From: Aggregatilineales bacterium | GTDB taxonomy: Bacteria; Chloroflexota; Anaerolineae; Aggregatilineales; UBA2796 | Assembly (NCBI GenBank): GCA_038239365.1 | Contig: JBBSEU010000001.1 | Location: forward strand, 9,688 to 73,687 | DNA: 64,000 nucleotides | Direction of reading: 5' to 3' | Shown here: in pieces, positions 2,048 to 64,000 of the stretch | Layout of the letters: each line of letters starts with the position of its first letter | Numbering within the stretch: position 1 is the stretch's first letter | Notes under the pieces: model-generated | Databases searched by the model: none | The model's input: the letters and a program-made list of their open reading frames with translations, nothing else | What the model was told of the DNA's origin: nothing | Program-made: the position numbers and the translations under genes

Positions 2048-4345
2048 CTATATGAAATAAATACGGATTGGCACATTTGCCAGACGGATTTCGTCGCCGC
2101 TTTTTAGCGGATACGGTTCATTTGGCTTTATGGCGACGCCGTTAATAAATGTGCCATTGGTACTCCGCAAGTCCTCAATTTGTAACCCGTCGGGGTTGTG
2201 CTGAAGCCGGGCGTGGATACGTGAAACACCAAAGCTATCAGCCTGAAAATCCGTCAGATCGATGTGTTCATCCGGGTTTGCCTCCGGGTTGTGACGACCC
2301 AACGTTATTTGTGAGCCGACAGTGTATGTCAAAGGCATACCAGAATTGTTGACGAACACGACGATTGATAGACCTTCAATCACCTGCGTCGAGTTATTCA
2401 ATGCCTGCCGTTTACTGTCGCTGCTGCCTGTAGCCTTCATTCGATTTGAAGTCGCTTTCCGTGCCAGTATTTCAGCCGCAAGTGCTGCTTCGTCGGTTCG
2501 TGTCAGCGTAGAACTCTCGGCGGAAAGCTCATTTTGATGACCGGATGGCACTACGTTGGCGGGTAACATATCCGGTGCTGCGGTCACTGGCTCAGATACT
2601 TTGGCTTGTTCCGCCGATTTAACGTAGCCAACCTGTACCGTCCAGGGATCAACGCGATTTAGCAGAACACCAGTCACAGGCAGGGATAAGCCACTCAGAT
2701 AACGCTGCGCGCGAACGGCTGCGGCGCGGGGGGTATGCCCGGCGTCAATAACCAGAATGACCTCTGATGTGGTTAACTTGGCGATCAGTGCTGCATCTGC
2801 CTGTTCCAACAAGGCTGGTGCATCGAAAATGATGACATCATACGATGTATCTTTTGCCAGATTCTCCATAAACTGCCGCATTTCCGGCGAGTCGATAAGG
2901 CCTGTTCGGTCAGGCACGGCGACACCTGCCGTGATCACAGACAGACAAGTAATCTCAGTGGGCTTCGCCAGCCTCTCCATCAACTCAGACCAGCGATTTG
3001 TATCTTGTAGTCCATCCTCATATGCCTCCGTTGGCAGTGGGGGCAAAAGCCGAGTTGTCATGGAACCGTTCGTATGAGGCGCTTCTAACTGTTTTACGCC
3101 TTGAGCTTCGGGTTGGCGTGAAACAGTGGTCAAGGCTGTTTCTTCGAGATTCAGAGTCAGAACCGTTGATAGTCCCTGTTCGTTGGACAACTTGAAGATT
3201 TTATGCAATGTTGGATGACGCAAATTCGTATCAACCAGCAAAACCCGTAGTCCGGTCAATGCAAAGGTCACCGCCAGATTAGCTGCATTAATGCTTTTCC
3301 CCTCTTTGGGGTGGGGACTGGTAACGGTATAGCGTAGATGAAGCTGATCGCTTTTTTTCCTCTGCAAAAGCAGATTAAGATACAAAATGCGATAGGCCTC
3401 GGATACTGCCGAAATGGGATTCAGGTACGCGATCAGCTTTTTGTTGTAGGCGCGTCTTCGGCCAAAAGGCGTGATCATGCCGATGAGTGAAAGCCCCAAC
3501 AATGACTCGATTTCTGAGGGTAGACGAATTCCATCCGTCAGGTACTCAACGACGAACACAATGCTCATCGAAAAGACTAACCCGGCGACGAGCGCCACCA
3601 ATGTATTGAGAGTTGCAGACGGCCCGGTGGACTTAACCGGCGTATAGGCCGCCTCAACAACGGTCAGCGTATTGACAGCGTTGGCGTCTTGCAGCTTGAT
3701 TAAGATGCCAAGCTGGTCATTGAGGATAGTTTGTGCGGCAAAGATACGATCATTCAACTCGCTTCGGCGTGTCGTCAACGCCGCTGCATCGGTTGGGCTA
3801 TTCGCAAGCGCCTCAGTAACCTGGTTTAACTCGTCATGGAGGCCTTTCAATTGAGCCTGTGTCTTATCCAGCTCATCCTTGACAACCCGTATCTGATCCT
3901 GCTGTTCAATAGCGATCTTGGTCGGGCTGTTGACAATCAGCTCATCGGCCAGGGCATTGGCGATGCTGGCCGCCAGCACCGGGTTGGAGTTGCTGACAGT
4001 GATGGTAAATAAAGCCGTGTTGGCGCGTGTCTTGACCTGAAACATCTTATCGAGTGCGTCTGCCGTCAGATTGAGGTGCAGACGGTCAATCACGACATTT
4101 AGCGTATTCCGCGTCCGCACGATAAAGATGTAGGTATCTGCCAGTTCGCGGGGGAGCGTCACGGTGGGGCTGTCCAGGTTCGGGTTGCCTGCGCGTGCGG
4201 ACCCAATCTCAAGCGTTGTTGCGGCCTCGTAAATTGGGGGTTGTGCCTTTGTAAAGATGAAGGCGCTGCCGCCTGCCAGAAGCAGCGATAATCCGATTAA
4301 CCAGAACCAGCGACGAAGAATGGAGACATACGTCAGAAATTGCAT
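2048..4345 (-). CDS. Polysaccharide co-polymerase (Wzz/PCP) fused to BY-kinase-like P-loop domain and a C-terminal FHA domain
   Basis: ORF track 2048..4351 (GTG 4351, ATG 4345). TM1 WFWLIGLSLLLAGGSAFIF, long helical ectodomain, TM2 LVALVAGLVFSMSIVFVV. P-loop TSPHPKEGKS, Walker A-prime LLVDTNLR, Walker B VIIFDAPA. C-terminal FHA strings LGRHN, GVSRIHARL, STNGTFINGV, GDEIRL. Confidence 0.85.
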   Translation of the reverse strand: MQFLTYVSILRRWFWLIGLSLLLAGGSAFIFTKAQPPIYEAATTLEIGSARAGNPNLDSPTVTLPRELADTYIFIVRTRNTLNVVIDRLHLNLTADALDKMFQVKTRANTALFTITVSNSNPVLAASIANALADELIVNSPTKIAIEQQDQIRVVKDELDKTQAQLKGLHDELNQVTEALANSPTDAAALTTRRSELNDRIFAAQTILNDQLGILIKLQDANAVNTLTVVEAAYTPVKSTGPSATLNTLVALVAGLVFSMSIVFVVEYLTDGIRLPSEIESLLGLSLIGMITPFGRRRAYNKKLIAYLNPISAVSEAYRILYLNLLLQRKKSDQLHLRYTVTSPHPKEGKSINAANLAVTFALTGLRVLLVDTNLRHPTLHKIFKLSNEQGLSTVLTLNLEETALTTVSRQPEAQGVKQLEAPHTNGSMTTRLLPPLPTEAYEDGLQDTNRWSELMERLAKPTEITCLSVITAGVAVPDRTGLIDSPEMRQFMENLAKDTSYDVIIFDAPALLEQADAALIAKLTTSEVILVIDAGHTPRAAAVRAQRYLSGLSLPVTGVLLNRVDPWTVQVGYVKSAEQAKVSEPVTAAPDMLPANVVPSGHQNELSAESSTLTRTDEAALAAEILARKATSNRMKATGSSDSKRQALNNSTQVIEGLSIVVFVNNSGMPLTYTVGSQITLGRHNPEANPDEHIDLTDFQADSFGVSRIHARLQHNPDGLQIEDLRSTNGTFINGVAIKPNEPYPLKSGDEIRLANVPIRIYFI

Positions 4346-4395
4346 ACTCACCCGTCTTGTTAACCAATTGCGAAGGTTTAGATGGCACGATTGAA

Positions 4396-51982: not shown

Positions 51983-52395
51983 TGTCGCAAATCAGCAATG
52001 CCGCGCTCATCGAAAAGGCCGCCGCCGTCCTTAACCCGATCAAGCTGGCTGATCATTGGGTGGGCGATGTGGGCAGCGCACTCATCACCGATCAGGGCAA
52101 TATTTACCTGGGTGTGTGCATGGACATCAGTTCGGGCATTGGTTTTTGTGCCGAACATAGCGCCATCGCCGCGATGGTCACGGCAGGTGAATACCGGATC
52201 GAAAAGATCGTCGCCGTCTGGAAAGATGACAAAGGGCTTTACGTGCTATCTCCCTGTGGGCGCTGCCGAGAGTTCATCCGCCAGATTCACAAGGATAATT
52301 TGCAGACCGAAGTGATCTTAGACGTGGATAAAGTGGCGCGGCTGGCCGAACTGCTGCCCTACCACGATTGGTTTCATCCCCTGTCGAAGGGTTAA
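51982..52395 (+). CDS. Small cytidine/deoxycytidylate deaminase-fold protein (blasticidin-S-deaminase-sized)
   Basis: Zinc-ligand motifs CAEHSAI (C/H-A-E) and SPCGRCREF (PCxxC). ATG shares one base with the XRE stop (TGATG). Confidence 0.8.
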   Translation: MSQISNAALIEKAAAVLNPIKLADHWVGDVGSALITDQGNIYLGVCMDISSGIGFCAEHSAIAAMVTAGEYRIEKIVAVWKDDKGLYVLSPCGRCREFIRQIHKDNLQTEVILDVDKVARLAELLPYHDWFHPLSKG

Positions 52396-53375
52396 CCCCA
52401 CACAATTACCGTATTATCTTTGCTACCGGATGCGATCCGCGCGCCATCACTCGAAAACGCAATGCTATGCACCTTATCAGTGTGCCGCCGCAAGACCCCA
52501 ATCGGATAAGGGCGGCGGTCATCAATACGCCATAAACGGATCGTATGGTCACTTGAGGCAGACGCTAGTCGCAAGCCGTCCGGCGAAAAAGCCACGCATT
52601 GAACGCAGTCTTCATGCGCGCGGAGCGTGATCGGCACGGCATAGCGAAGCGTCGTCAGATCGTGTGGCAACAGCGATAAATCCCAGATTTTGACGGTGCC
52701 ATCATAACTGCCCGATGCCAGCCGCCGTCCGTCAGGTGAAAAGGCGGCACTCGTCACACCATCGGTATGGCTGCGAAGGGTCACCAACGGTGCGGTAGTT
52801 TGCCTGTTCAGGATAGCGCGCAAATCCCACAACAGCAGCGTATTATCCATGCTGGTCGAAATCAACCAGCGCGCGTTAGGTGATACTACCACCTGATAAA
52901 CATGACCGTTGTGCCCACTCAGAGCAATCGGCGGGCGCTGCGGCTTTTCCAGATCGATCAGCCGCACAACGTTGTCCGTGCCGCCGGAGATCAGCCAGCG
53001 TTCATCGGGAGTGAAGGTCACACTGTAGACCGCGCCCGAATGCGCTTCCAGTCCGAGTCGCAACCAGGCGGCCAGTCTGCGCCGAAGGGCAAGCTGCCAT
53101 AAGCGAACCCGGTGATCATTGCTGCCTGTCGCCAGCCAACTGTGTCGTGGCGAAAAAGTGACGCTGGAAACTGAACCCGCGTGCCCTTCGAGTGTTGAGT
53201 CAAGTCGCTCCGCCGATAAATCCCACAGTTTGACCGTGTTATCGTAGCTGCCAGAGGCCAGATAGCGAGGGTTTGCAGAAAGGCTTGCAAAGGCGACGCT
53301 GTACACCGTTTGAGTGTGGCCGCGTAGCGTCATGAGCGGCTCAAATTTCCCGGATCGGCTGAGTGGCGCAACCAT
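52392..53375 (-). CDS. Stand-alone seven-blade WD40 repeat protein
   Basis: Seven repeats ending VKLWDL, VRLWQL, VRLIDL, LLLWDL, VKIWDL, IRLWRI, VIVWG, each preceded by GH-type starts (LRGHTQTVYSVAF, LEGHAGSVSSVTF...). Confidence 0.85.
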   Translation of the reverse strand: MVAPLSRSGKFEPLMTLRGHTQTVYSVAFASLSANPRYLASGSYDNTVKLWDLSAERLDSTLEGHAGSVSSVTFSPRHSWLATGSNDHRVRLWQLALRRRLAAWLRLGLEAHSGAVYSVTFTPDERWLISGGTDNVVRLIDLEKPQRPPIALSGHNGHVYQVVVSPNARWLISTSMDNTLLLWDLRAILNRQTTAPLVTLRSHTDGVTSAAFSPDGRRLASGSYDGTVKIWDLSLLPHDLTTLRYAVPITLRAHEDCVQCVAFSPDGLRLASASSDHTIRLWRIDDRRPYPIGVLRRHTDKVHSIAFSSDGARIASGSKDNTVIVWG

Positions 53376-54647: not shown

Positions 54648-56594
54648 TTATATAACCTTTATTGTGTGCAGGATAAACAGGCCGACAGCGGCGGCAATGA
54701 TCAACAGCACCAGTATCACGACGACCAGGATTATGGGGCTGCGTCCCTGTTTTTTCGGTTTTATGTCTTCGGGGCGCGGCGCGGCCATCATACCGGTGAG
54801 GCCGCTTCCGCCATCCAGCATATTGCGCTTGAGCGATGAACGCCGCATAAAATCCGTGCGATATTGTTCTTCCAACTGGCGGGCGGTGGTCGGCTGCGCG
54901 CCAGCCGCGCTGGGCGGCACAGACGCATATTTGCTAAAGTCGTATGGCTTCGATTCCGGCGGTGCGGATGGCTGCGCGCCTGGATAAGACGACATTGGCA
55001 TATCCGGCATGGTCTTGTCCATGCCGGGTGTCCCTGGCCGGGAGTAACCCGGTGTTTCCGGTTGGGGGCGTTGCGGGACATAGGGCGCTGAGTAGGGCGA
55101 ACTATCCGCCTTCGCATCATTGCGCTGTGCCGATGGTGATACATAGGGCGCAGCATAGGGCGGCTCTGGCGCACGCGCAGCAGGTGAAACGTAGGGCTGC
55201 TGATAGGGTTCTGGCTGCGGTGTGGGTGGTGGTGTTGGTGCCCCGCCGATAAATGTATCCAGTTCTGGTTCTTTTGCGGGCTGACGCAGTTGATCAACCG
55301 AAAACCCTTCGGGCATCGTCCGATCCATTGCCATTGGCTCAGGTTGCGGCGCACGAGTCGGTGGTGGCACGGGAGTCGGTGGTGGGGTTGGCGGCGCGGC
55401 AGCCTGACGTAATTGATCAACCGAAAACCCTTCAGGCATCGTCCGATCCATCGCCATTGGCGGCGGTTCAGGCGCACGAGCCGGTGGTGGCGCGGGAGTT
55501 GGTGGTGGGGTTAGCGGCGCGACAGCCTGACGTAATTGATCAACCGAAAACCCTTCGGGCATTGTGCGATCCATCGCCATTGGCGGCGGTTCTGGCGCAC
55601 GGGCTGGTGGTGGCGCGACAGCCTGACGTAATTGATCAACCGAAAACCCTTAGGGCATTGTGCGATCCATCGCCATTGGCGGCGGTTCTGGCGCGCGAAC
55701 AGGCGCGGCAAGTGGCGCTATTGACGGCGCTGACAGAGTACGGAGTGCCTCGGTCAGCGCGCCAATGTAATCGGCATACGATGAATAACGCTGCGATGCG
55801 TCTTTTGCCAGCCCGCGCGTGATGATCGGCGTCAGCACTGCCAACGATGGATCAATCACTGCCGGAGTCGGGATCGGCGCACCGGTGTGTTGAGCAATGA
55901 CCTGTTGCGGGGTGCTGGCTGTGTAGGGTGGCTGCCCCGTGACCATCTCGTAGAGCAGTGCGGTGAGCGAATACTGATCGGAAAGTGCCGTAATCGGTTG
56001 CCCGCGCACAACTTCGGGCGCGGCGTAATAGGCCAGCGAGAGATCATCAGTCAACGCTTTGGGAAGTCTCAAACCGATCAGTGGCGCAAATCCCACATCA
56101 CCTAACAGGGGACCCCGTTTGCTGCTGACCGTGATCGACAGCGGCGAAAGGCTGCCATGCAGCATCGCGTTTTGGGCGGCGTAAGCCAACGCTTCGGCCA
56201 AAATTTGCGTATATTCCAGGGCGGTGTTGAGCGCAATTCGCCCGTCTTCATCAAGTTTGCGGCGCAGCGTAGGCGATTTATGATATTCAGCGACGACGTA
56301 GAAGGTCTCGTTGTCGTTGCCGTAATCATATAGCTTGAGCAGGTACGGTGAATTAAAGCCGAGCAGTGTCTTGATCGTCTCCCGAAAGCGTACCTGAAAG
56401 CCGGGCTGTGCAGTCAGGGAAGGAGTCAGTATCTTGAGCGCGATCTTGAGTTTGACGGCTTCGTGGGACGCCAGATAAGTATCCAACACCGCATTCGAGG
56501 TCACCAGTTCGAGAACTGAATAGGTGATGGGCATGGTATCCACCATATGATGAACCGTCTGCCCAACAAGTGATCGCTTATCCTGATTCGCCAC
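54648..56594 (-). pseudogene. Kinase-like (predicted pseudokinase) protein with a 4x tandem repeat, Pro-rich region and C-terminal TM anchor. One in-frame TAA at 55652..55650 splits it into ORFs 55650..56594 and 54648..55580.
   Basis: Both ORFs share one frame. The stop sits where the other three repeat copies have GAA (MAMDRTMP-E-GFSVDQLRQ). The kinase fold is recognisable (IALKIL, RETIKTL, GDVGFA, AAPEV), but HRD is HGS and there is no Gly-rich loop. The C-terminus RSPIILVVVILVLLIIAAAVGLFIL is a TM helix. Could also be a sequencing error or two functional genes. Confidence 0.65.
55281..55700 (-). repeat. In-frame tandem coding repeat, 4 copies (periods 96, 123, 123 nt)
   Basis: Core CTGACG(T/C)A(A/G)TTGATCAACCGAAAACCCTT..GGCAT.GT.CGATCCAT.GCCATTGG recurs with the 18 aa cores at 55676..55623, 55580..55527, 55457..55404 and 55334..55281, encoding MAMDRTMPEGFSVDQLRQ plus Pro/Ala-rich spacers. 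Confidence 0.85.
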
Positions 56595-56630: not shown

Positions 56631-58946
56631 TTAGTAATCCAGATCAAACCTGAATTCGAGCGATCCGAGGCGGATCAGATCGCCATTTTTCAGGTGTTTG
56701 GGCACGTCGGGCAGCATTTTCACATTATTGACGAATGTTCCATTGCGGCTGGCCCGATCTGTGATGTAAAAACCGTCTTCGCCGATGCTAATCTCGGCAT
56801 GTCGCCGCCCAATCAGAACGGGTTCGCCATCCAGCAGCATATTCGCCAGATCAATATCCGGGAAGTAACCAATTTCCGGTATTGCTCGCCCGATCACCGT
56901 CTCCCGATCCTTGTTGATCGGGAACGACTTGCCGCCCGACTGCGTCCAGATCAGGTAGACGCGCATATCCATTCGCATTTGACGATGTGCATTATACAGC
57001 TTTTCTAAAAGACGGCGCGTGTCCGGGCTGATCAATCGCTGGCGGCTGGCACGTCGATCCGCGTCTGGTGTGGGGCGTCCGGGGTCACGAATACCTGACC
57101 AGCGTACTTTCAACTCCTGGATCGTTTCCATGATCTTATCGACGTTTTCCATCTGGATCACGCCGCCCTGTTCGGGGTTACGCTTGACGCGCCGATCCAA
57201 CTCGCTGAGCGTATCGCCCATCAGATACGAGATCACACGCTTGAACTCTTCGTCGCTTGCCAGATCATCGGAAGGCAGCAGAATATATTGACGTAGCATT
57301 TCCAGATCGCTGGCAACGCCGGGTTGCGGGTGGAAATCTTCGATACGAAGGCGATCTGTTGTGCGTTTGTCGCGGAAAAATTCGGCCAGATAAGGTTCGC
57401 CAGTCTTAGGATCAATGGGCGAGTCGAACTGCTCCACCTGTTTTTCATCAGCCGACATTTGCAGCCGGAACAACGGCACCACTTCGACTTGCAGCTTATC
57501 GGCTTCCATATCCGGCTCCATCGAGCGAATCCAGCCCAATTCGCTGATACGGCGGCCACCATCGGCCTGACGTTCGGCATGGATGACCAGTTGGAAAGCG
57601 TTGTAAATGTGCCCGACGATCTCCGCTTCATTCTGGACGCCCGCGTTGGACATACGTACCAGCGCCTGCAAACGGCTGACGGCGTACTGTGGGCCGCTGG
57701 AGTGAATTGTACAAATCGAGCCGTCATGCCCGGTGTTCAACGCCTGGAGCATATCCCATGCTTCCGCGCCGCGCACCTCACCCACGATGATCCGACGCGG
57801 TGAAAGGCGCAGCGAATTGATCACCAGATCGCGCATGGTGTAGCTGGTGCCTTCACGAGTGCTGGCTGTTTTGGTCAGCAGCGAAACGACGTTCTTTTCA
57901 TCCACATCCAAATTGCTGATGCGCGCCAAATCTTTAACGTCGATTTCGCCCGCGCCGTCGCCGTTTCGATCTCCGGTGAGCTGCAATTCCTGGGTGTCTT
58001 CAATGGTCACAACGCGCTCATGTGCCGGGATGAAACCCGCGATCACGTTGAGCAGAGTCGTTTTACCCGCGCCAGTGCCGCCCGTCACCAGAATATTGAA
58101 GCGCGAACGCACAACCAGCCCCAAAAGCGCCATCAGCCGCACATTGTACACGCCGCGCAAGAGCAAATCGCGCCAGTTCCATGTCCCGACGTGTTTACGA
58201 ATGGTGATGTACCACAGGCCATCGGCGGCAATCGGTGGGATCGTGATGTTGATACGGTGTTCGGTGTTGGGCAGCTTAGCATCGAGGATCGGGGAGTTTT
58301 CGTCAACGCGACGGTTGATCTCCGATAGGTTGCGGTAGACCACGTTTCGCAGGTGTTCGTGGCTGCGAAAGTGAATCGTTTCATCCACTGAGCCGAGGCG
58401 CGGACGCTTGCTGCGAACCTGTCGCACGCGGTCTTCGGCGCGCGTCTTGACCAACACCTGATTCCAGCCGATCACGTAAATATCTTCGGCCATCTCGTCT
58501 TCATTATCGCGCTCGTAGTCAGTAACCAGTTCTTCGAGCGGACCAAAACCAACCATATCGTCCAGGATTTCTTCTGACCAGGCCGTGATCGCGTTGCGGC
58601 GGCCTAACTCATCCTGAGCGCGCATCCGCTTGATCAGGTCAAGTGCGATGTGATCCAGTTCATCATCGTTGAGCAGTTCGACGCATGTTTTGCGGATGAT
58701 AGGGGTCAGCAGGCGGCGGCGTTCAGCCTTCGACATGGTCATTAACGAGGCGTCATCGGCAAAACCGGGCACGATCAAGCCTTTGAGTGGCGCTTTACGG
58801 ACAGCCTGGCCGCGCGGTTTGTAATCGATCATCGTGCCCATACGCGCCATTTGTGCCAGCCGCCGGGCTGCCGCACGTTTCAGTATTTCGACTTCGCTGT
58901 CTGTGTACGTGAGCGCCTGCTGCTCGGTTTGCTCCATGACTGCCAT
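56631..58946 (-). CDS. cpaF: CpaF/TadA-type secretion ATPase with long N-terminal extension and C-terminal FHA domain
   Basis: Walker [14 protein letters not shown], Asp box [12 protein letters not shown], Walker [14 protein letters not shown], His box [13 protein letters not shown]. Residues ~680-771 carry VIGRA...IGRRHAEI...[10 protein letters not shown]...GDLIRLG (FHA). 771 aa in total. Confidence 0.9.
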
Positions 58947-58998: not shown

Positions 58999-59997
58999 TC
59001 ATGGCGTCAGTGGAATGTTAGCGACAAACAAGCCGACACTGGCAAGCAGCGTCAGCATCAAGGCCAGCACAAGCAGCGATTGAGGATAAACAATCGTAAC
59101 GCGCGCCGTGGAGGCCGCTTGTTCCGCCGCTTTGAGTCGTCCATTACGCACGCGATCCACGATTTCGGGCAGGGTATCGCGCAGTGAACTACCCACTTCC
59201 TGGGAGAGCGTGACGGCCTGTGTCAGTTCGTCCCAGAGCGTGACCGCCGCATCGCTGAACTCGTTTTCGTCGCCTTCTTTACGCATGGTGGCGCGCAATC
59301 CCAACGAATCCATAAAATCGGCACGGGAGACGCCCATATTACGTTCAAACAAGGCTTGTGCCAGTTCGATTCCAAGTGGATATTGATCGGGCTTGAGCAG
59401 ATAGCGATCATAAATCGTGCGCCCCGCCGTTTCAAGCGCCTGATCGAACTCTGCCCCGGCGCGCATCGTGATCGCCATCAGCTCCAGTAGGTCGGCCAAT
59501 TGCAGTAGAAGGCGCTGTTTGCGCTGCTCAACGCGGCGCTTGAGGGCAATTGTCGGGAAGCGCCAACCCAGAAAGCCCAGCCCCAACGACAGAACAACCG
59601 CCACGCTCAGGACAAAATCAGCGGGTGCAGGTGGATTTTCCAGATTTTGTTTGGCCTGAACGGTCATACCAGGCAGACTCGCGTCGGTGAAAGTGGGCAC
59701 TTCGGACAGCCAGCCCGCCGCTGAACAGGCCAGAAAAATCCCCAGCACCGCCCCCGCCCCTTGCAGCCAACGGTAACGCCAGGGAGTGGCTCGGAATGGA
59801 TCGTTCAAATAGGACAGCCGCTGCTCCATTTCCGCATCCTGGCGGCGGCGTAATGCTGTCGGCATCAAAAAGACGATGAGCGCGGCGGGCACGCGCCCCA
59901 ACAGCCCGAACGCGCGGCGACGTGGCCGTGAGTTCCACAACCCGGTAGCGAATAAGACCATCAAAATGACCGTCGCAAACATTCCGTACTGACCCAT
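58999..59997 (-). CDS. Type II secretion system F-family membrane protein (TadC-like)
   Basis: Position after the tadB-like gene. N-terminal TM, cytoplasmic helical domain (LLLQLADLLELMAITMRAGAEFDQALE), C-terminal TM pair. Confidence 0.75.
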   Translation of the reverse strand: MGQYGMFATVILMVLFATGLWNSRPRRRAFGLLGRVPAALIVFLMPTALRRRQDAEMEQRLSYLNDPFRATPWRYRWLQGAGAVLGIFLACSAAGWLSEVPTFTDASLPGMTVQAKQNLENPPAPADFVLSVAVVLSLGLGFLGWRFPTIALKRRVEQRKQRLLLQLADLLELMAITMRAGAEFDQALETAGRTIYDRYLLKPDQYPLGIELAQALFERNMGVSRADFMDSLGLRATMRKEGDENEFSDAAVTLWDELTQAVTLSQEVGSSLRDTLPEIVDRVRNGRLKAAEQAASTARVTIVYPQSLLVLALMLTLLASVGLFVANIPLTP

Positions 59998-60008
59998 AAT
60001 GATCCCTG

Positions 60009-60920
60009 CTACACGTCCGTCGAATTAATCTGAATGATCCAATATACGCTGATGCCAATGGCGGTGAAGGCCAGGATCAATACAAAACGCCCAAAATAGG
60101 TACCATACAGCAGCCCACTGAATAATGGAAAAGCCGTCAGGCCAAGAAATAGCCCAACGATGATCACCACGAGCGACGTGGCGGCCTGCCTTCCCGGAGC
60201 AAGCTGCGTGCGAATTTCGCGCTCAGTGGCTTCGCGCTGATGCAGCAGTCGGGATAAATCATTGAGCAGTTCACCCAGATCGCCGCCCAATGGTCGTACT
60301 ACCGAAATGGTGAGCGCCGCCTGATCGAGTGCGTCACTTTGATACAGTGGGTTTTGCGCGATCTCAGCCAGAGCTTCGTCAATCGAGATCAGGCCGCCGC
60401 TTGCCACCATTTTAATCAGTGCATCGCCAAATTCCTGGCTGATCGGCTTGCCAAACTGAGTCGCCACGCGCTGAACGGCGGCTTCGACAGAGTGCCCGGC
60501 GGCGATCTCGTCACCCATAATGCCCAGGGCTTCGGGCAGCAAGCGCGCCATATTCTTTTGGGCAGCGCGATTGTAGAGCGAGTTGCCCACCAGGATCGCA
60601 AAGATGACGCCAATGACGCCGAACAGCAGCAGGAAGACAAGTCCGAAGCGCAATGAATCATCACCCGAACCGGCCAACAATGTCGAGACCAGCACAGCCA
60701 CGACTCCAAACCCGATCCAAAACGATCCGGCGGTCAGGTGTGTGCCGCGCGTGAGTTCCAGATAATCGGCAACTCGTTCCATCGAGGCGGCAATGCGTTG
60801 ATACAGACCGGGCTTGCCGTTGGCAGTTCGCAGCAACACCACGTTCAAGCCATCGATCATGCGGCGCAGCAAGCCAAGTCGCCACACGATATACAGCGCG
60901 ATTAGCTCTACAACCAGCAC
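60009..60920 (-). CDS. Type II secretion system F-family membrane protein (TadB-like)
   Basis: GTG start. LPEALGIMGDEIAAGHSVEAAVQRV...LGGDLGELLNDLSRLL helical domain flanked by TM helices. Confidence 0.75.
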   Translation of the reverse strand: MLVVELIALYIVWRLGLLRRMIDGLNVVLLRTANGKPGLYQRIAASMERVADYLELTRGTHLTAGSFWIGFGVVAVLVSTLLAGSGDDSLRFGLVFLLLFGVIGVIFAILVGNSLYNRAAQKNMARLLPEALGIMGDEIAAGHSVEAAVQRVATQFGKPISQEFGDALIKMVASGGLISIDEALAEIAQNPLYQSDALDQAALTISVVRPLGGDLGELLNDLSRLLHQREATEREIRTQLAPGRQAATSLVVIIVGLFLGLTAFPLFSGLLYGTYFGRFVLILAFTAIGISVYWIIQINSTDV

Positions 60921-60938: not shown

Positions 60939-61697
60939 TTAAAAGAACTTGGTGATTAGATTTAGCGTATCAACATCATCCGCTTTGTCAACACACCAGC
61001 CTGTCAGTTTGGCACTGGCATAGTAGACCTGCCACCAGCGCAGCCCATTGGCGAAGACCGGGCCGCCGACAATGACCGCCGTCTTGCCATTCGGGATGAT
61101 GAAATACGTATCGCCTTTCAAGCCGGGCTTACGACGGATGTTCAGGCTGTCGCCCGCTGTCGTCCGAATGCGAACGAAATCCCCATAGTGAAAATCGAAG
61201 GGCGGCGGTTGGGGCAGCGCAAAACGCATCGGCTCATGTTCGATCATCACGATAGAGCGCGAACCTAACGGCACATTCAAGGCGATGCCGGGTCCGGCCA
61301 TCGGGATTTGCGCCACGATCTCGACACTCAGGCGCGTCCCGATCTTGCGCTGTTTGGCATCTATCGGATCGAATTTGATCTTGATTTTGTTGCTGCAACC
61401 GTCGTTTTGCAGCGTGCAGTGTTCCGGGTCAGTGCAGCCGTCGGCAACCAGACTGCACGCTTCCTTGAGGATGCGTTCAATCTCATCGTTGCTGTTGGTC
61501 ATCGCGCCCCACTGCGCCGCCCGCGCCACGATGTCGATCACCTGCTGCTGCAAGAAAATAGCGCGAATGACGATCACGCCGCCGCCCATCGTGGACATGA
61601 TCAGCATGATCACGAGTGCGAACTCAACCAGTGCCTGACCGCGCCGAGATCGTTGTGCCAGACCGCGCCAACGCCGGAAAACACGAGGCAGGATCAT
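60939..61697 (-). CDS. TadE-like pseudopilin with Cys-rich insert and C-terminal bacterial SH3 domain
   Basis: N-terminus RRGQALVEFALVIMLIMSTMGGG (TadE/class III signal pattern). CSLVADGCTDPEHCTLQNDGC. C-terminal GDFVRIRTTAGDSLNIRRKPGL...GLRWWQVYY...LTGWCVD is SH3b-like. Confidence 0.75.
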   Translation of the reverse strand: MILPRVFRRWRGLAQRSRRGQALVEFALVIMLIMSTMGGGVIVIRAIFLQQQVIDIVARAAQWGAMTNSNDEIERILKEACSLVADGCTDPEHCTLQNDGCSNKIKIKFDPIDAKQRKIGTRLSVEIVAQIPMAGPGIALNVPLGSRSIVMIEHEPMRFALPQPPPFDFHYGDFVRIRTTAGDSLNIRRKPGLKGDTYFIIPNGKTAVIVGGPVFANGLRWWQVYYASAKLTGWCVDKADDVDTLNLITKFF

Positions 61698-61698
61698 C

Positions 61699-62226
61699 TT
61701 AGAAAAACTCCCGTGTTGGTGCTGCCGTGACGCGCGGCTCCATCCGTGCTGTTGCCTTCGTGCCGAGCCGTACCGTCAGGTCTGGCAAAAACGGGCCGAC
61801 AAGCTGCATATCGTAGGTCACTTCGACGCTCACCGGGTTATCCGGGATATTGTTCGGATCGAGTAGTGCCGCCGGGTCAGGTGTAATCGTGGACGGTGCT
61901 TTGCCTGTGACGGGGATCGGTGTGGGCGTCACATAACGTTTGAAGACTGGCTTTTCGGGCGTAAAAACCACGCGCAAACGGGCTGCATTGACTCCCGGCA
62001 AATTGTCCAGCACAAGCTGACGCGCCACCGTCGTATCGCCAGTCAATGCAACGGCGCGCACGGCGATATCCGCCGCGTTGTTGACCGAGTACCAGGTGTT
62101 GAGGATCAACAACATCCGCACAATCGACAGGATCAAAATGAGCAGCACGGGCAGCAGCACCGCGAACTCGACGAGCGATTGTCCAGGCCGGATGCGCCGA
62201 AATAAACTGGGAAAACTTAGGAACAT
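61699..62226 (-). CDS. TadE-like pseudopilin
   Basis: ORF track to 62331. ATG at 62226 gives MFLSFPSLFRRIRPGQSLVEFAVLLPVLLILILSIV (TadE N-terminal motif). Confidence 0.75.
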   Translation of the reverse strand: MFLSFPSLFRRIRPGQSLVEFAVLLPVLLILILSIVRMLLILNTWYSVNNAADIAVRAVALTGDTTVARQLVLDNLPGVNAARLRVVFTPEKPVFKRYVTPTPIPVTGKAPSTITPDPAALLDPNNIPDNPVSVEVTYDMQLVGPFLPDLTVRLGTKATARMEPRVTAAPTREFF

Positions 62227-62267
62227 GATGAATAAGCGTAGCACAGCTAACCCGGCTCGGCAAGCGG

Positions 62268-62276
62268 TGATACAAT
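62268..62276 (+). promoter_or_regulatory. Candidate extended -10 element for the two-component operon
   Basis: TGATACAAT (TGn + TACAAT at 62271..62276) in the 70 bp divergent intergenic region. No good -35. Confidence 0.3.
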
Positions 62277-62296
62277 GATCGATCAAGGTGTTTAAT

Positions 62297-63010
62297 ATGC
62301 AGCAAAACAAATCAACGCGCGTGCTGATCATTGAAGATCAGGTCAAAATTTCTCACTGGCTAAGCACATTTCTGCAACAGGCGGGCTTCGAAGTGCTTTC
62401 GGCGGCCAACGGCGCGCACGGTCTGGCACTGGCACGCACTGAACAACCGGACGTGATCGTTCTGGATTTGATGCTGCCCGATATGGATGGCCTGGATGTG
62501 TGCCGCGCTATTCGACGTAACTCCGATGTATTCATTATTATGCTGACAGCGCGCGTTGAAGAAACGGATCGGCTGATCGGGTTGGAGATGGGCGCGGATG
62601 ATTATGTCACCAAGCCGTTCAGTCCGCGCGAAGTGGTTGCCCGCATTCGGGCGCTGCTGCGGCGTGCCAATGGTGGATTGGCGACGGGTACGGTCACAGC
62701 GAAGCCGCTGGTGTGTGGGGCGCTCACACTCGATCCGACGCGCCGAACCTGCACATTGGCTGATCAGTCGATCTCACTGACGCCGACGGAATTTTCGATC
62801 CTGGAAACGATGATGCGACAGCCGGGTATTCCCTTCACGCGCGAACGGCTCATCTCTGAGGCACTTGGCTACGATTATGCGGGTTACGAACGGACGATTG
62901 ACGTTCACATTCGCAATTTGCGGCGCAAACTCGAAGACGATCCGCAAAATCCACATTTTATCCTGACCGTGTTCGGCGTTGGCTATCGGTTTGCGGAGGA
63001 TAGGCCATGA
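62297..63010 (+). CDS. OmpR/PhoB-family response regulator
   Basis: ORF track 62288 (GTG), ATG at 62297. VLIIEDQ, VIVLDLMLPDMDG, IIMLTAR, YVTKPF. Winged helix LTPTEFSILETMM...GVGYRF. Confidence 0.9.
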   Translation: MQQNKSTRVLIIEDQVKISHWLSTFLQQAGFEVLSAANGAHGLALARTEQPDVIVLDLMLPDMDGLDVCRAIRRNSDVFIIMLTARVEETDRLIGLEMGADDYVTKPFSPREVVARIRALLRRANGGLATGTVTAKPLVCGALTLDPTRRTCTLADQSISLTPTEFSILETMMRQPGIPFTRERLISEALGYDYAGYERTIDVHIRNLRRKLEDDPQNPHFILTVFGVGYRFAEDRP

Positions 63011-64000
63011 ACTTCTGGCGCAGTCGATTACGCTGGCAACTGATGCTCAGCTATTTACCGTTAATCGTCGTGCCGGTGCTGCTGATCGGGTTGGTGACTT
63101 CACGGTTGGCCGAACAGGGTTTGACGCTAATCATTACGCAGGGGGCACAGCACAAAGCAAGCGAACAGGCCACGCAATTCGCGCAATATTATGCTGACCA
63201 CGGCTCCTGGGATGGCGTTTCGCAGCTTTTTGTGATCCCGCAGCGCCCGCCCTGGCTGCCGATTCTCAGGCCGCTTGACCCGGACAAACCCAGAGGTGAA
63301 GGCCCCGGTTTTGGTGAACTGTTCTCACCGGAGCAGCTTCTGATCACCGATCTGAACGGCACGGTGATTGCCAGCGACAGTAATAAAGGTTTGGGACAAT
63401 CTCTGGCGGAAGGGGCACTGCGGCGCGGCGCACCGATCATCGTCAAGGGTAAGCAGATCGGGACGCTGGTCATTGGCGCGGCGTTCGGGCTGCTCGATCA
63501 GCAGCAGCGCCAACTACTGGATGCGGTGAATACGGCGCTGGTTTTATCGGGGTTTGTTTCCGTCGTACTGGCGATTGTTTTGGGGCTGTGGTTGTCGTGG
63601 CAGATCACGCGGCCAGCGCAGCAGTTGATGATCGGCGTGCGGCGACTCTCGCAAGGGGAGTGGACAGAGCCGTTGGAAGTGCAATCCAACAATGAATTTG
63701 GTGATCTGACGCGCGCCTTCAACACAATGGCAAGCGAAGTGACTCGCCAGCAGCAGCTTCGCCGCCAAATGGTGGCTGATGTGGCACACGACTTGCGAAC
63801 GCCGCTCAGTGCCATGACCTTAGAGATCGAAGCAATTGAAGCAGGCTTTCAGACGCCCGAAGAAGCAACGGCCAGTTTACGTGAGGAAGTTAACTGGTTA
63901 CAGCAGCTTGTGGATGACCTGCGAACGCTGTCACTGATGGATGCCGATCAGGTGCAGTTACAGCCGATTGTCACGCCGCTCTATCCGTTTTTGTGCAGCG
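63007..64000 (+). CDS. Sensor histidine kinase, partial (runs off the right edge)
   Basis: Not in the ORF track (no stop). ATG at 63007 overlaps the regulator stop (ATGA). TM1 LMLSYLPLIVVPVLLIGLV, periplasmic segment, TM2 LVLSGFVSVVLAIVLGLWL, HAMP (RPAQQLMIGVRRLSQGEW...FGDLTRAFNTMASEV), H-box MVADVAHDLRTPLSAM. Confidence 0.85.
   Translation, partial: MNFWRSRLRWQLMLSYLPLIVVPVLLIGLVTSRLAEQGLTLIITQGAQHKASEQATQFAQYYADHGSWDGVSQLFVIPQRPPWLPILRPLDPDKPRGEGPGFGELFSPEQLLITDLNGTVIASDSNKGLGQSLAEGALRRGAPIIVKGKQIGTLVIGAAFGLLDQQQRQLLDAVNTALVLSGFVSVVLAIVLGLWLSWQITRPAQQLMIGVRRLSQGEWTEPLEVQSNNEFGDLTRAFNTMASEVTRQQQLRRQMVADVAHDLRTPLSAMTLEIEAIEAGFQTPEEATASLREEVNWLQQLVDDLRTLSLMDADQVQLQPIVTPLYPFLCS

Follow-up and report, generated by a model that had tools for sequence, protein, structure and literature searches.

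Fusion of a forkhead-associated (FHA) domain to the motor ATPase of a Tad pilus is already known, with the FHA domain placed at the N-terminus. Class III CpaF proteins, for example E3HIW0 of Achromobacter, consist of an N-terminal FHA domain, an intrinsically disordered region and CpaF, and they are mostly betaproteobacterial (PMC12019362). KilF, the motor of the Tad-like Kil system of Myxococcus xanthus, has an N-terminal FHA domain as well; FHA proteins are over-represented in the Kil system, its cluster is rich in them and a signalling cascade is suspected (PMC8460266). In type VIIb secretion systems (T7SSb), the N-terminal FHA domains of EssC/YukB do not conserve the residues for phosphothreonine (pThr) and bind the membrane pseudokinase EssB/YukC without phosphorylation (PMC9600267). 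Type VI secretion systems (T6SS) have a threonine-phosphorylation pathway made of the kinase PpkA, Fha/TagH and pThr on TssL or Fha (PMC3953482). Here we analyse a gene that encodes a CpaF/TadA-family ATPase with an FHA domain at its C-terminus, together with the operon around it, in a stretch of 64,000 nucleotides from an Aggregatilineales bacterium (GenBank assembly GCA_038239365.1, contig JBBSEU010000001.1, positions 9,688 to 73,687 of the forward strand; the whole stretch is called the window below, and coordinates are collected in Table 1). A literature search for a pilus ATPase with C-terminal FHA domain returned nothing relevant. Two aspects of the locus are new, namely the C-terminal placement of the FHA domain by way of a folded helical adaptor, and the conserved partnership of the motor with two further proteins, one of them FHA-REC-FHA, the other a tail-anchored pseudokinase whose repeats contain an invariant Thr.

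Judging by its sequence and context, the gene product is best explained as a hexameric ATPase that serves as the motor in a pilus-like machine of the Tad (type IVc) kind in Aggregatilineales (Chloroflexota). An earlier sequence-only reading of this DNA had announced a 771-amino-acid (aa) protein with all CpaF motifs, and both points were borne out. The open reading frame (ORF) lies on the minus strand, which that reading left unstated, and Walker A (GGTGAGKTT), Asp box (IEDTQEL), Walker B (IIVGEVRG) and His box (TGHDGS) were located at aa 289, 315, 386 and 405, respectively. Pfam T2SSE matches aa 189-450 (E 4.7e-36, 124.7 bits, cut-off 24.9). In the Protein Data Bank (PDB), the top phmmer matches are structures of Caulobacter crescentus CpaF (8rkd, 8rjf and 9e24, E ~1e-55), aligned in two blocks (query residues 125-324 and 351-480), with VirB11 (6e-21), PilT (7e-5) and FlaI far behind. 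The full-length AlphaFold2 model, built from 69 homologs, reached a mean pLDDT (predicted local distance difference test) of 80.6 and a predicted template modelling score (pTM) of 0.75, and its first Foldseek match is CpaF 8rjf again (E 8e-26, target-normalized TM-score (TMt) 0.70, ~28-29% identity over the alignment). The fold of the motor is closest to CpaF and not to PilB, PilT or VirB11, and the catalytic core is apparently that of an ordinary, competent CpaF.

That the protein ends in an FHA domain, as had been claimed, was confirmed both by profile (Pfam PF00498, aa 684-761, E 3.4e-14, 53.4 bits, gathering cut-off 20.7) and by its fold, an 11-strand β-sandwich. The modelled domain (pLDDT 80-90) matches the FHA domains of Rv0020c, GarA and OdhI with TMt 0.80-0.87 and root-mean-square deviation (rmsd) 2.0-2.6 Å; Rv0020c 3poa gives TMt 0.87 and rmsd 2.2 Å, GarA TMt ~0.8. 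RNF8, Ki67 and Rad53 FHA1 are among further Foldseek matches, and there is a weak match to the TIGR03354 (TagH) model. Residues G686, R687, H716, S733, N735 and G736 are invariant in the clade of 11 members. A phmmer alignment pairing the Gly-Arg of GarA with "GY" at 693-694 of the query was dropped in favor of G686-R687, which Pfam aligns to the GR of the profile and which is invariant. A loop longer by ~9 residues after the GR is common to all four FHA domains of the window.

The sequence-only reading had also quoted "RRH" as a part of the FHA motif. Its histidine (H716) is invariant; the canonical serine of the same motif is, in the window copy, Gly713. Position 713 is Gly (IGRRHA) in the window and Ser (ISRxHA) in ten of ten orthologs. 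The codon is TCG in the four orthologous loci read and GGG in the window, and because two nucleotide changes separate them, Gly713 is not a single-base miscall. Loss of the phosphate-contacting serine of FHA domains (Rad53 FHA1 S85A, GarA S95A) usually abolishes pThr binding. As judged from aligned residues, the canonical pThr pocket (Gly-Arg, Ser-x-x-His, Ser/Thr-x-Asn) is thus present for the clade and incomplete in the window copy. No sign of relaxed constraint on the window's FHA domain was found in the ratio of FHA to core identity, which is ~74/98 for the comparison with ortholog P0002 and near ~68/88 for other ortholog pairs.

The remaining parts of the protein differ from what had been supposed. 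A linker of ~200 aa between ATPase and FHA domain resolves into the usual C-terminal motif of CpaF (aa 481-535) and a conserved helical region (aa 536-656), whose mean pairwise identity among orthologs is 66%, next to 68% for the FHA domain. In the full-length model the helical region has pLDDT ~90, and 50-70 if it is modelled without the ATPase. We take that to mean that it packs against the ATPase and is not a free linker, because the high values are reached only in the ATPase context. With the FHA domain it forms an appendage of ~235 aa in total. No relatives of the helical region were found outside the clade when the C-terminal 296 aa were searched with phmmer against 1.84 billion representatives: the helical part was matched only in its own cluster and in one fragment, all other matches cover the FHA domain alone, and ten of the best long matches with a late FHA domain are not secretion ATPases (multi-FHA proteins, fusions of pyridine-nucleotide oxidoreductase with FHA, and a kinase-FHA fusion). 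Foldseek gave no convincing PDB fold match for this region either. EmbR, a helical domain followed by FHA, was the top match and was dismissed, because its rmsd of ~19-20 Å and TM-score of ~0.3 reflect merely the order of helices and FHA.

Similarly, a supposed N-terminal extension of ~250 aa shrinks to ~60 extra residues (helix and hairpin), in which no FHA match occurs. Residues ~125-260 align with the canonical N-domain of CpaF in the phmmer comparison with the PDB, and residues 73-131 stand at the position of its three-helix bundle. C. crescentus CpaF has a disordered N-terminus of its own, of 79 residues (PMC12019362). The insertion which had been noticed between Asp box and Walker B is real by the gap in the alignment and by pLDDT below 50 (residues 325-349, and again in the subsequent loop 358-365). 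Its ~25 residues directly precede the strand corresponding to C. crescentus β9, which runs into the pore loop that contacts the platform; the same site is used in the homologs P0014 and P0022-24, and the insertion is not in the consensus of ordinary CpaFs. The CpaF alignment reveals a second insertion in the N-domain, ~14 aa long and basic, at ~aa 169-190. The extended pore loop of C. crescentus CpaF that contacts the platform is T325-T337 (PMC12019362), with sequence TRPPNLEGSGAVT. Its equivalent in the window motor, aa 358-370, is conserved in the clade and Ser or Thr at eight of 13 positions, and TMRD after it is kept also in CpaFs without FHA domain.

Directly 3´ of the motor gene lies a gene for a protein of the kinase fold family (Pfam Pkinase, 77.7 bits). 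It consists of a kinase-like domain (aa ~24-280), a Pro-rich repeat region and a single C-terminal transmembrane (TM) helix, which would make the protein tail-anchored with the remainder in the cytoplasm. In alignment with PknB, the Gly-loop GFGGMSEV is replaced by TSNAVLDT, and HRDVKPAN by HGSLSPLS, without catalytic Asp, Lys and Asn; the catalytic signature is thereby reduced to the VAIK Lys, in ALKIL, and the DxG Asp, in GDVG. HG followed by S, L or I stands for HRD in all six orthologs read. Because HRD Asp, catalytic-loop Lys and Asn, and Gly-loop are absent, the protein is more likely a docking platform than a writer of the phosphoryl mark.

The repeat region, too, may belong to a docking platform. 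The window gene has four DRTMPE repeats and one degenerate copy. Intact orthologs (557-701 aa; 557 and 595 aa in loci L002 and L003) have three to six repeats and a C-terminal TM helix each. The core R-T-M is invariant across the orthologs read, in an extended form (D/G)RTM(P/A)(E/D) with the consensus DRTMPE, and the Pro-rich spacers diverge; variants are GRTMADM in L004 and one copy in L009 with His for Arg. Conservation of RTM amid diverging spacers is a pattern that short linear docking motifs typically show, and an invariant Thr repeated in a variable, disordered spacer near at least three FHA domains would fit an FHA docking platform. In the window, an in-frame TAA splits the gene in two, with a kinase-like part of 314 aa and a part of 310 aa that starts at an in-frame ATG and comprises repeats and TM helix, and the frame is uninterrupted in L001, L002, L003, L004, L006 and L009. 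The TAA may be a genuine nonsense mutation, or else the consensus sequence is wrong at this point within the ~120-nt tandem repeats. The near-identical contigs L002 and L003 differ by one DRTMPE repeat (3 vs 4 copies), so the region appears assembly-prone; the array either expands and contracts or collapses in assembly.

The kinase-like gene directly follows the motor gene in six of seven distinct genomes (window, L001, L002/L003, L004, L006 and L009). Further downstream comes the gene for the FHA-REC-FHA protein in four of them (window, L001, L004, L009), and a WD40 gene follows in the window, L001 and L009. Because of this synteny, we regard the motor, the kinase-like protein and usually the FHA-REC-FHA protein as the conserved core of the locus. 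Both FHA domains of the FHA-REC-FHA protein retain GR, SRxH and NG, and its domain composition suggests that His-Asp and Ser/Thr-phospho signalling may converge on the pilus motor. By eye, its receiver has the features that are usual for such domains, namely an acidic pocket (VVEDD, LDLMLPG), a Ser in VVSA and a Lys in AKP.

A protein search yielded ten orthologs of the motor with 73-88% identity and 768-798 aa, all of them with T2SSE and FHA. Those that could be assigned are from metagenome-assembled genomes of Aggregatilineales or Anaerolineae; the closest relative, L009, is 88% identical. Four CpaF homologs (P0027, P0041, P0073 and P0099) have an N-terminal FHA domain at aa ~23-88, the layout of class III CpaF and of KilF. 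Because the core of the window motor is 38-40% identical to them, no higher than to CpaFs without FHA domain, the C-terminal fusion appears independent of the N-terminal one. A distant pair, P0022/P0023 (~35% identity), has its insertion at the same site as the window motor and shares some of the helical extension with it (hhalign, to column 577). Its tails, scanned alone, give weak FHA matches of 29.2 and 20.3 bits (gathering score 20.7), and its pocket has His for Ser and Arg for Asn. At least two lineages thus have C-terminal FHA-CpaF, and by these residues the pocket is canonical in one and degenerate in the other. The survey of FHA-CpaF architectures thus upholds the C-terminal form, in ~11 orthologs and a degenerate lineage; an FHA domain on the motor as such had been published before.

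At the P0022 locus (L011, 5777-7860), a 562-aa protein encoded 3´ of CpaF begins with a signal peptide or TM segment; a large portion outside the cytoplasm follows, then another TM helix and an FHA-like cytoplasmic tail. Next to it is the start of a kinase that has a Gly-rich loop (GVGGMG). Because of these downstream genes, association of FHA and kinase seems to recur in the wider CpaF family. Among Chloroflexota CpaF homologs, P0012 (1156 aa), P0018 (813 aa, Caldilineaceae) and P0026 (1173 aa) contain two or three T2SSE units per polypeptide and resemble covalently fused motor subunits.

We suggest the following mechanism. A clade-specific appendage, the ~120-aa helical region on the ATPase and then the FHA domain, would have been added to the CpaF core. 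We infer that the FHA domain binds pThr, that the DRTMPE motifs of the membrane-anchored pseudokinase supply it and that the binding has a regulatory consequence; to the claim that the FHA domain is a docking or regulatory module which ties the motor to these repeats we give about an even chance. KilF, in a Kil system rich in FHA proteins, and class III CpaF are precedents for it. Such docking could control the place and time of engagement of the motor with the TadB/TadC platform. The FHA-REC-FHA protein might compete for the same phospho-sites, or bridge them, under His-Asp input, and the mark would be written by a kinase from another locus. The sequence-only reading had taken an FHA domain on the motor itself to imply recruitment to, or control by, a pThr-bearing partner. 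Such a partner is a reasonable inference for the family, because a kinase-like gene adjoins the motor in six of seven genomes, and the clade has the pocket residues. Control of the motor by it is likewise reasonable for the family, though not new in principle and not secure for the window copy.

Several observations weigh against this proposal. As to the Tad motor, no NCBIfam equivalog model reached its cut-off (the best, TIGR03819, scored 188.5 bits vs 373.15), as is to be expected of a match that is split by the insertion; the VirB11 model TIGR02788 scored 167 bits with cut-off 249.95. No genes for Flp pilin, prepilin peptidase or TadZ were found in the window, and a regular-expression search for the Flp-type N-terminal motif over its six frames gave nothing. 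The tadB/C genes adjoin the motor gene only in the window and in L005 (T2SSF upstream), and not at several other loci. As to the docking, there is no pseudokinase next to the motor at the L005/L007 locus. The kinase-like neighbor is predicted to be an inactive pseudokinase, and the repeats are a putative ligand, assigned from adjacency and motif conservation. Because the phosphate-contacting Ser is replaced by Gly713, phospho-dependent binding by the window copy is doubtful, and with the TAA in the pseudokinase gene in addition, the link between FHA domain and pseudokinase looks weakened in the window genome.

Several rival explanations are less probable than docking to phosphorylated repeats. 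By analogy with T7SSb, the FHA domain might act as a phosphorylation-independent scaffold, with the folded pseudokinase domain or a different protein surface as its binding site; we consider this rather unlikely. The ingredients match those of EssC/YukB, an FHA-bearing secretion-type ATPase and a co-encoded membrane pseudokinase, and the interaction of YukB-FHA with the YukC pseudokinase was shown in E. coli, with no Hanks-type kinase there (PMC9600267). A pocket without Ser in the window, and without both Ser and Asn in P0022/P0023, would be compatible with such binding. However, the canonical pThr residues are kept in 10 of 11 clade members, unlike in the FHA domains of EssC/YukB, and a scaffold of this kind gives no role to the invariant-Thr repeats. 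Alternatively, the control by FHA and pseudokinase may be in the course of being lost in the window lineage, leaving a plain CpaF with a vestigial tail. Two independent lesions then hit one predicted interaction (Ser713 to Gly and the nonsense codon), and both are absent from the closest relative, L009. We think it quite improbable nonetheless: the rest of the FHA domain and the helical region are intact, the identity ratio to P0002 is similar to those of other ortholog pairs, the downstream part of the pseudokinase is in frame with an ATG and keeps three repeats and the TM anchor, and a TAA within near-identical ~120-nt tandem repeats may plausibly be an assembly or consensus error. FHA proteins such as GarA can bind their own phosphorylated tail. 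The FHA domain could in the same manner bind phospho-Thr on CpaF itself, in cis or in trans, for instance in the pore loop (aa 358-370), and so lock or release the hexamer. The loop equivalent is rich in Ser and Thr and predicted flexible, and the PDB match 2kfu, titled "Rv1827 pThr 22", belongs to the precedent of self-binding. The scheme rests on a putative phosphorylation of the motor, though; TMRD after the loop occurs also in FHA-less CpaFs and is therefore structural, and the pseudokinase repeats and the FHA-REC-FHA protein are left unexplained. We regard this autoregulation as very improbable.

Other explanations concern the face of the hexamer on which the appendage may sit. A 2026 preprint proposes that CpaF turns its N-terminal face to the platform for extension of the pilus and its C-terminal face for retraction; C. 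crescentus is reported there to be blocked in retraction if CpaF carries a C-terminal mCherry fusion or, on the C-terminal face, the substitution R387A (10.64898/2026.02.24.707734). The window motor has a natural C-terminal appendage of ~235 aa, modelled as packing on the ATPase. Further, if query residues are numbered as the CpaF residue plus 33 after the insertion, the equivalent of R387 is Gln420 (Gln or Pro in orthologs), with the preceding P386 retained as P419. The effect of the appendage may thus be mainly steric, in a motor that only extends or whose retraction is gated by FHA engagement; because the natural appendage ends in a phospho-reader and R387 is replaced by Gln420, the protein is a candidate for an extension-only motor or a regulated gate of the retraction face. 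We consider a mainly steric cap unlikely, as the inversion model is a recent preprint that rests largely on AlphaFold3 models, and the usual C-terminal motif is still partly there. A related possibility, to which we attach only a small chance, is that the appendage forms a phospho-Thr-operated gate on the face proposed for retraction in a single-motor Tad machine. Six FHA domains on multivalent pThr repeats would then fix the orientation of the motor or uncover one face, and the FHA-REC-FHA adaptor would modulate the docking under His-Asp control. If this is true, a signalling cascade would choose between extension and retraction of the pilus.

Table 1. Motor gene, its domains and the genes of the operon, with positions in the window
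Feature	Position	Strand	Basis
CpaF/TadA-family ATPase with C-terminal FHA domain	56631-58946 (stop codon included)	minus	ORF, 771 aa, ATG start; Pfam, PDB, Foldseek, AlphaFold2
Canonical CpaF N-domain and ATPase domain, aa 132-480	57507-58553	minus	PDB alignment, motif positions, Foldseek
FHA domain, aa 657-771	56634-56978	minus	Pfam, Foldseek, invariant residues
Codon GGG, Gly713 replacing the phosphate-binding Ser of FHA S-x-x-H	56808-56810	minus	Aligned to Ser of GarA "VSRRHAEF"
β-hairpin and C-terminal motif common to ordinary CpaFs, aa 481-535	57342-57506	minus	Consensus of 69 homologs; AlphaFold2 strands 487-508
Clade-specific conserved helical region, five to six helices, joining ATPase to FHA, aa 536-656	56979-57341	minus	11 orthologs; AlphaFold2
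Clade-specific N-terminal helix and hairpin (~aa 16-53), followed by three helices (73-131) placed like the CpaF three-helix bundle, aa 1-131	58554-58946	minus	AlphaFold2 secondary structure; domain plan of PMC12019362
Acidic insertion of ~25 aa after Asp box ELQL(T), predicted disordered, aa 325-351	57894-57974	minus	HMMER block gap vs CpaF; pLDDT <50
Ser/Thr-rich loop, equivalent of the C. crescentus extended pore loop, aa 358-370	57837-57875	minus	CpaF alignment, ortholog alignment
Tail-anchored predicted pseudokinase, 649 codons, one in-frame stop	54648-56594	minus	Translation, PknB alignment
Tandem repeats PEPPPMAMDRTMPEGFSVDQLRQA x4, invariant Thr, candidate multivalent FHA-docking motifs	55254-55703	minus	Translation, ortholog comparison
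In-frame TAA within DRTMPE repeat 1, where the three remaining repeats have GAA	55650-55652	minus	Translation, repeat comparison
Two TadE-like pseudopilin genes, operon start	60939-61697 and 61699-62331	minus	Pfam TadE E 1.4e-3 and 1.2e-9
TadB/CpaG-like platform protein (T2SSF)	60009-60920	minus	Pfam T2SSF E 1e-9
TadC/CpaH-like platform protein (T2SSF)	58999-59997	minus	Pfam T2SSF E 5e-5, 23.6 bits, cut-off 25.2
FHA-REC-FHA protein, 413 aa	53406-54647	minus	Pfam FHA x2 E 9e-28, Response_reg E 6e-24
Seven-blade WD40 protein, last operon gene	52392-53375	minus	Pfam WD40 E 1.6e-83, seven stretches

The operon, all on the minus strand, has the order of two TadE-like genes, two T2SSF genes, CpaF-FHA, kinase-like, FHA-REC-FHA and WD40. 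Intergenic gaps are 0-52 nt (1-52 nt among the TadE-like, T2SSF and motor genes), except for 69 nt between the halves of the broken pseudokinase ORF. The TadC/CpaH-like call is supported because a second T2SSF gene adjoins, though its score is just below the cut-off. Two small minus-strand ORFs upstream of the operon (63189-63473 and 63498-63815) were considered as Flp pilins and rejected as not being genes: they are rich in Cys and Arg, have no Pfam match and run antisense to a sensor-kinase ORF. Scans for tRNA genes and composition around the operon gave no sign of a mobile element. Divergent from the operon, on the plus strand, are an OmpR-type response regulator (62288-63010) and, by inspection (TM segments, HisKA H-box "VAHDLRTPLS"), a sensor histidine kinase that runs off the window (~63003 to beyond 64000); the pair is a candidate transcriptional regulator of the tad operon. 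At 2048-4351 on the minus strand, the window encodes a second envelope-machinery NTPase with a C-terminal FHA domain, a 767-aa protein with Wzz (aa 7-90), a ParA/CbiA-type P-loop domain (aa 343-572, resembling Wzc and BY-kinases) and FHA (aa 682-757, E 6e-17). A large surface-glycan cluster, mostly on the minus strand, extends over ~380-34168. It has genes for a Wzy_C ligase/polymerase, several GT4 and GT2 glycosyltransferases, two DegT aminotransferases, NeuB (nonulosonic-acid synthase), an N-formyltransferase, a pyruvyl transferase, two Polysacc_synt_2 dehydratases and an ABC exporter.

Docking of the motor to phosphorylated pseudokinase repeats, the reading which we prefer, bears on how a Tad machine with one motor activates it, places it and changes its direction. 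The lineage offers an explicit and testable wiring for it: an FHA domain at that end of the motor which lies on the proposed retraction face, a pseudokinase with three to six invariant-Thr motifs and a response regulator with two FHA domains. With this locus, the recurring pairing of FHA-bearing ATPase and membrane pseudokinase, familiar from type VIIb secretion, reaches type IV filament machines as well, which by analogy suggests that both have converged on one control logic. If the FHA domain is merely a tether, the fusion enlarges the known set of CpaF architectures only modestly.

Taken together, the window motor is most like C. crescentus CpaF, its best match in sequence and fold, with the same four motifs and the same plan of N-domain and ATPase domain. 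It differs in the ~25-aa insertion before β9 and the ~14-aa basic insertion of the N-domain, in the Ser/Thr-rich pore loop, in Gln at the position of R387 and in the ~235-aa helical and FHA appendage. The adjacent pair of T2SSF platform genes and the TadE-like genes of its operon are as in Tad systems. Class III CpaF and KilF likewise have the FHA domain covalently on a Tad motor. Their layout, with N-terminal FHA domain and disordered joint, is not that of the window motor, where the FHA domain (aa 657-771) is at the opposite end, the joint is folded and helical, and the host belongs to Chloroflexota. In the T6SS pathway, an FHA protein that reads pThr of a membrane component switches assembly of an envelope nanomachine (PMC3953482); that pathway uses a separate FHA scaffold and an active kinase, whereas here the FHA domain is part of the motor and the neighboring kinase-like protein is predicted inactive. 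T7SSb also co-encodes an FHA-bearing secretion ATPase with a single-pass membrane pseudokinase, whose role as a hub is known there. The ATPase belongs to the FtsK/SpoIIIE superfamily in T7SSb and is PilT/VirB11-like here, and it is here that the pThr residues are conserved in the clade and that the pseudokinase carries repeats with an invariant Thr.

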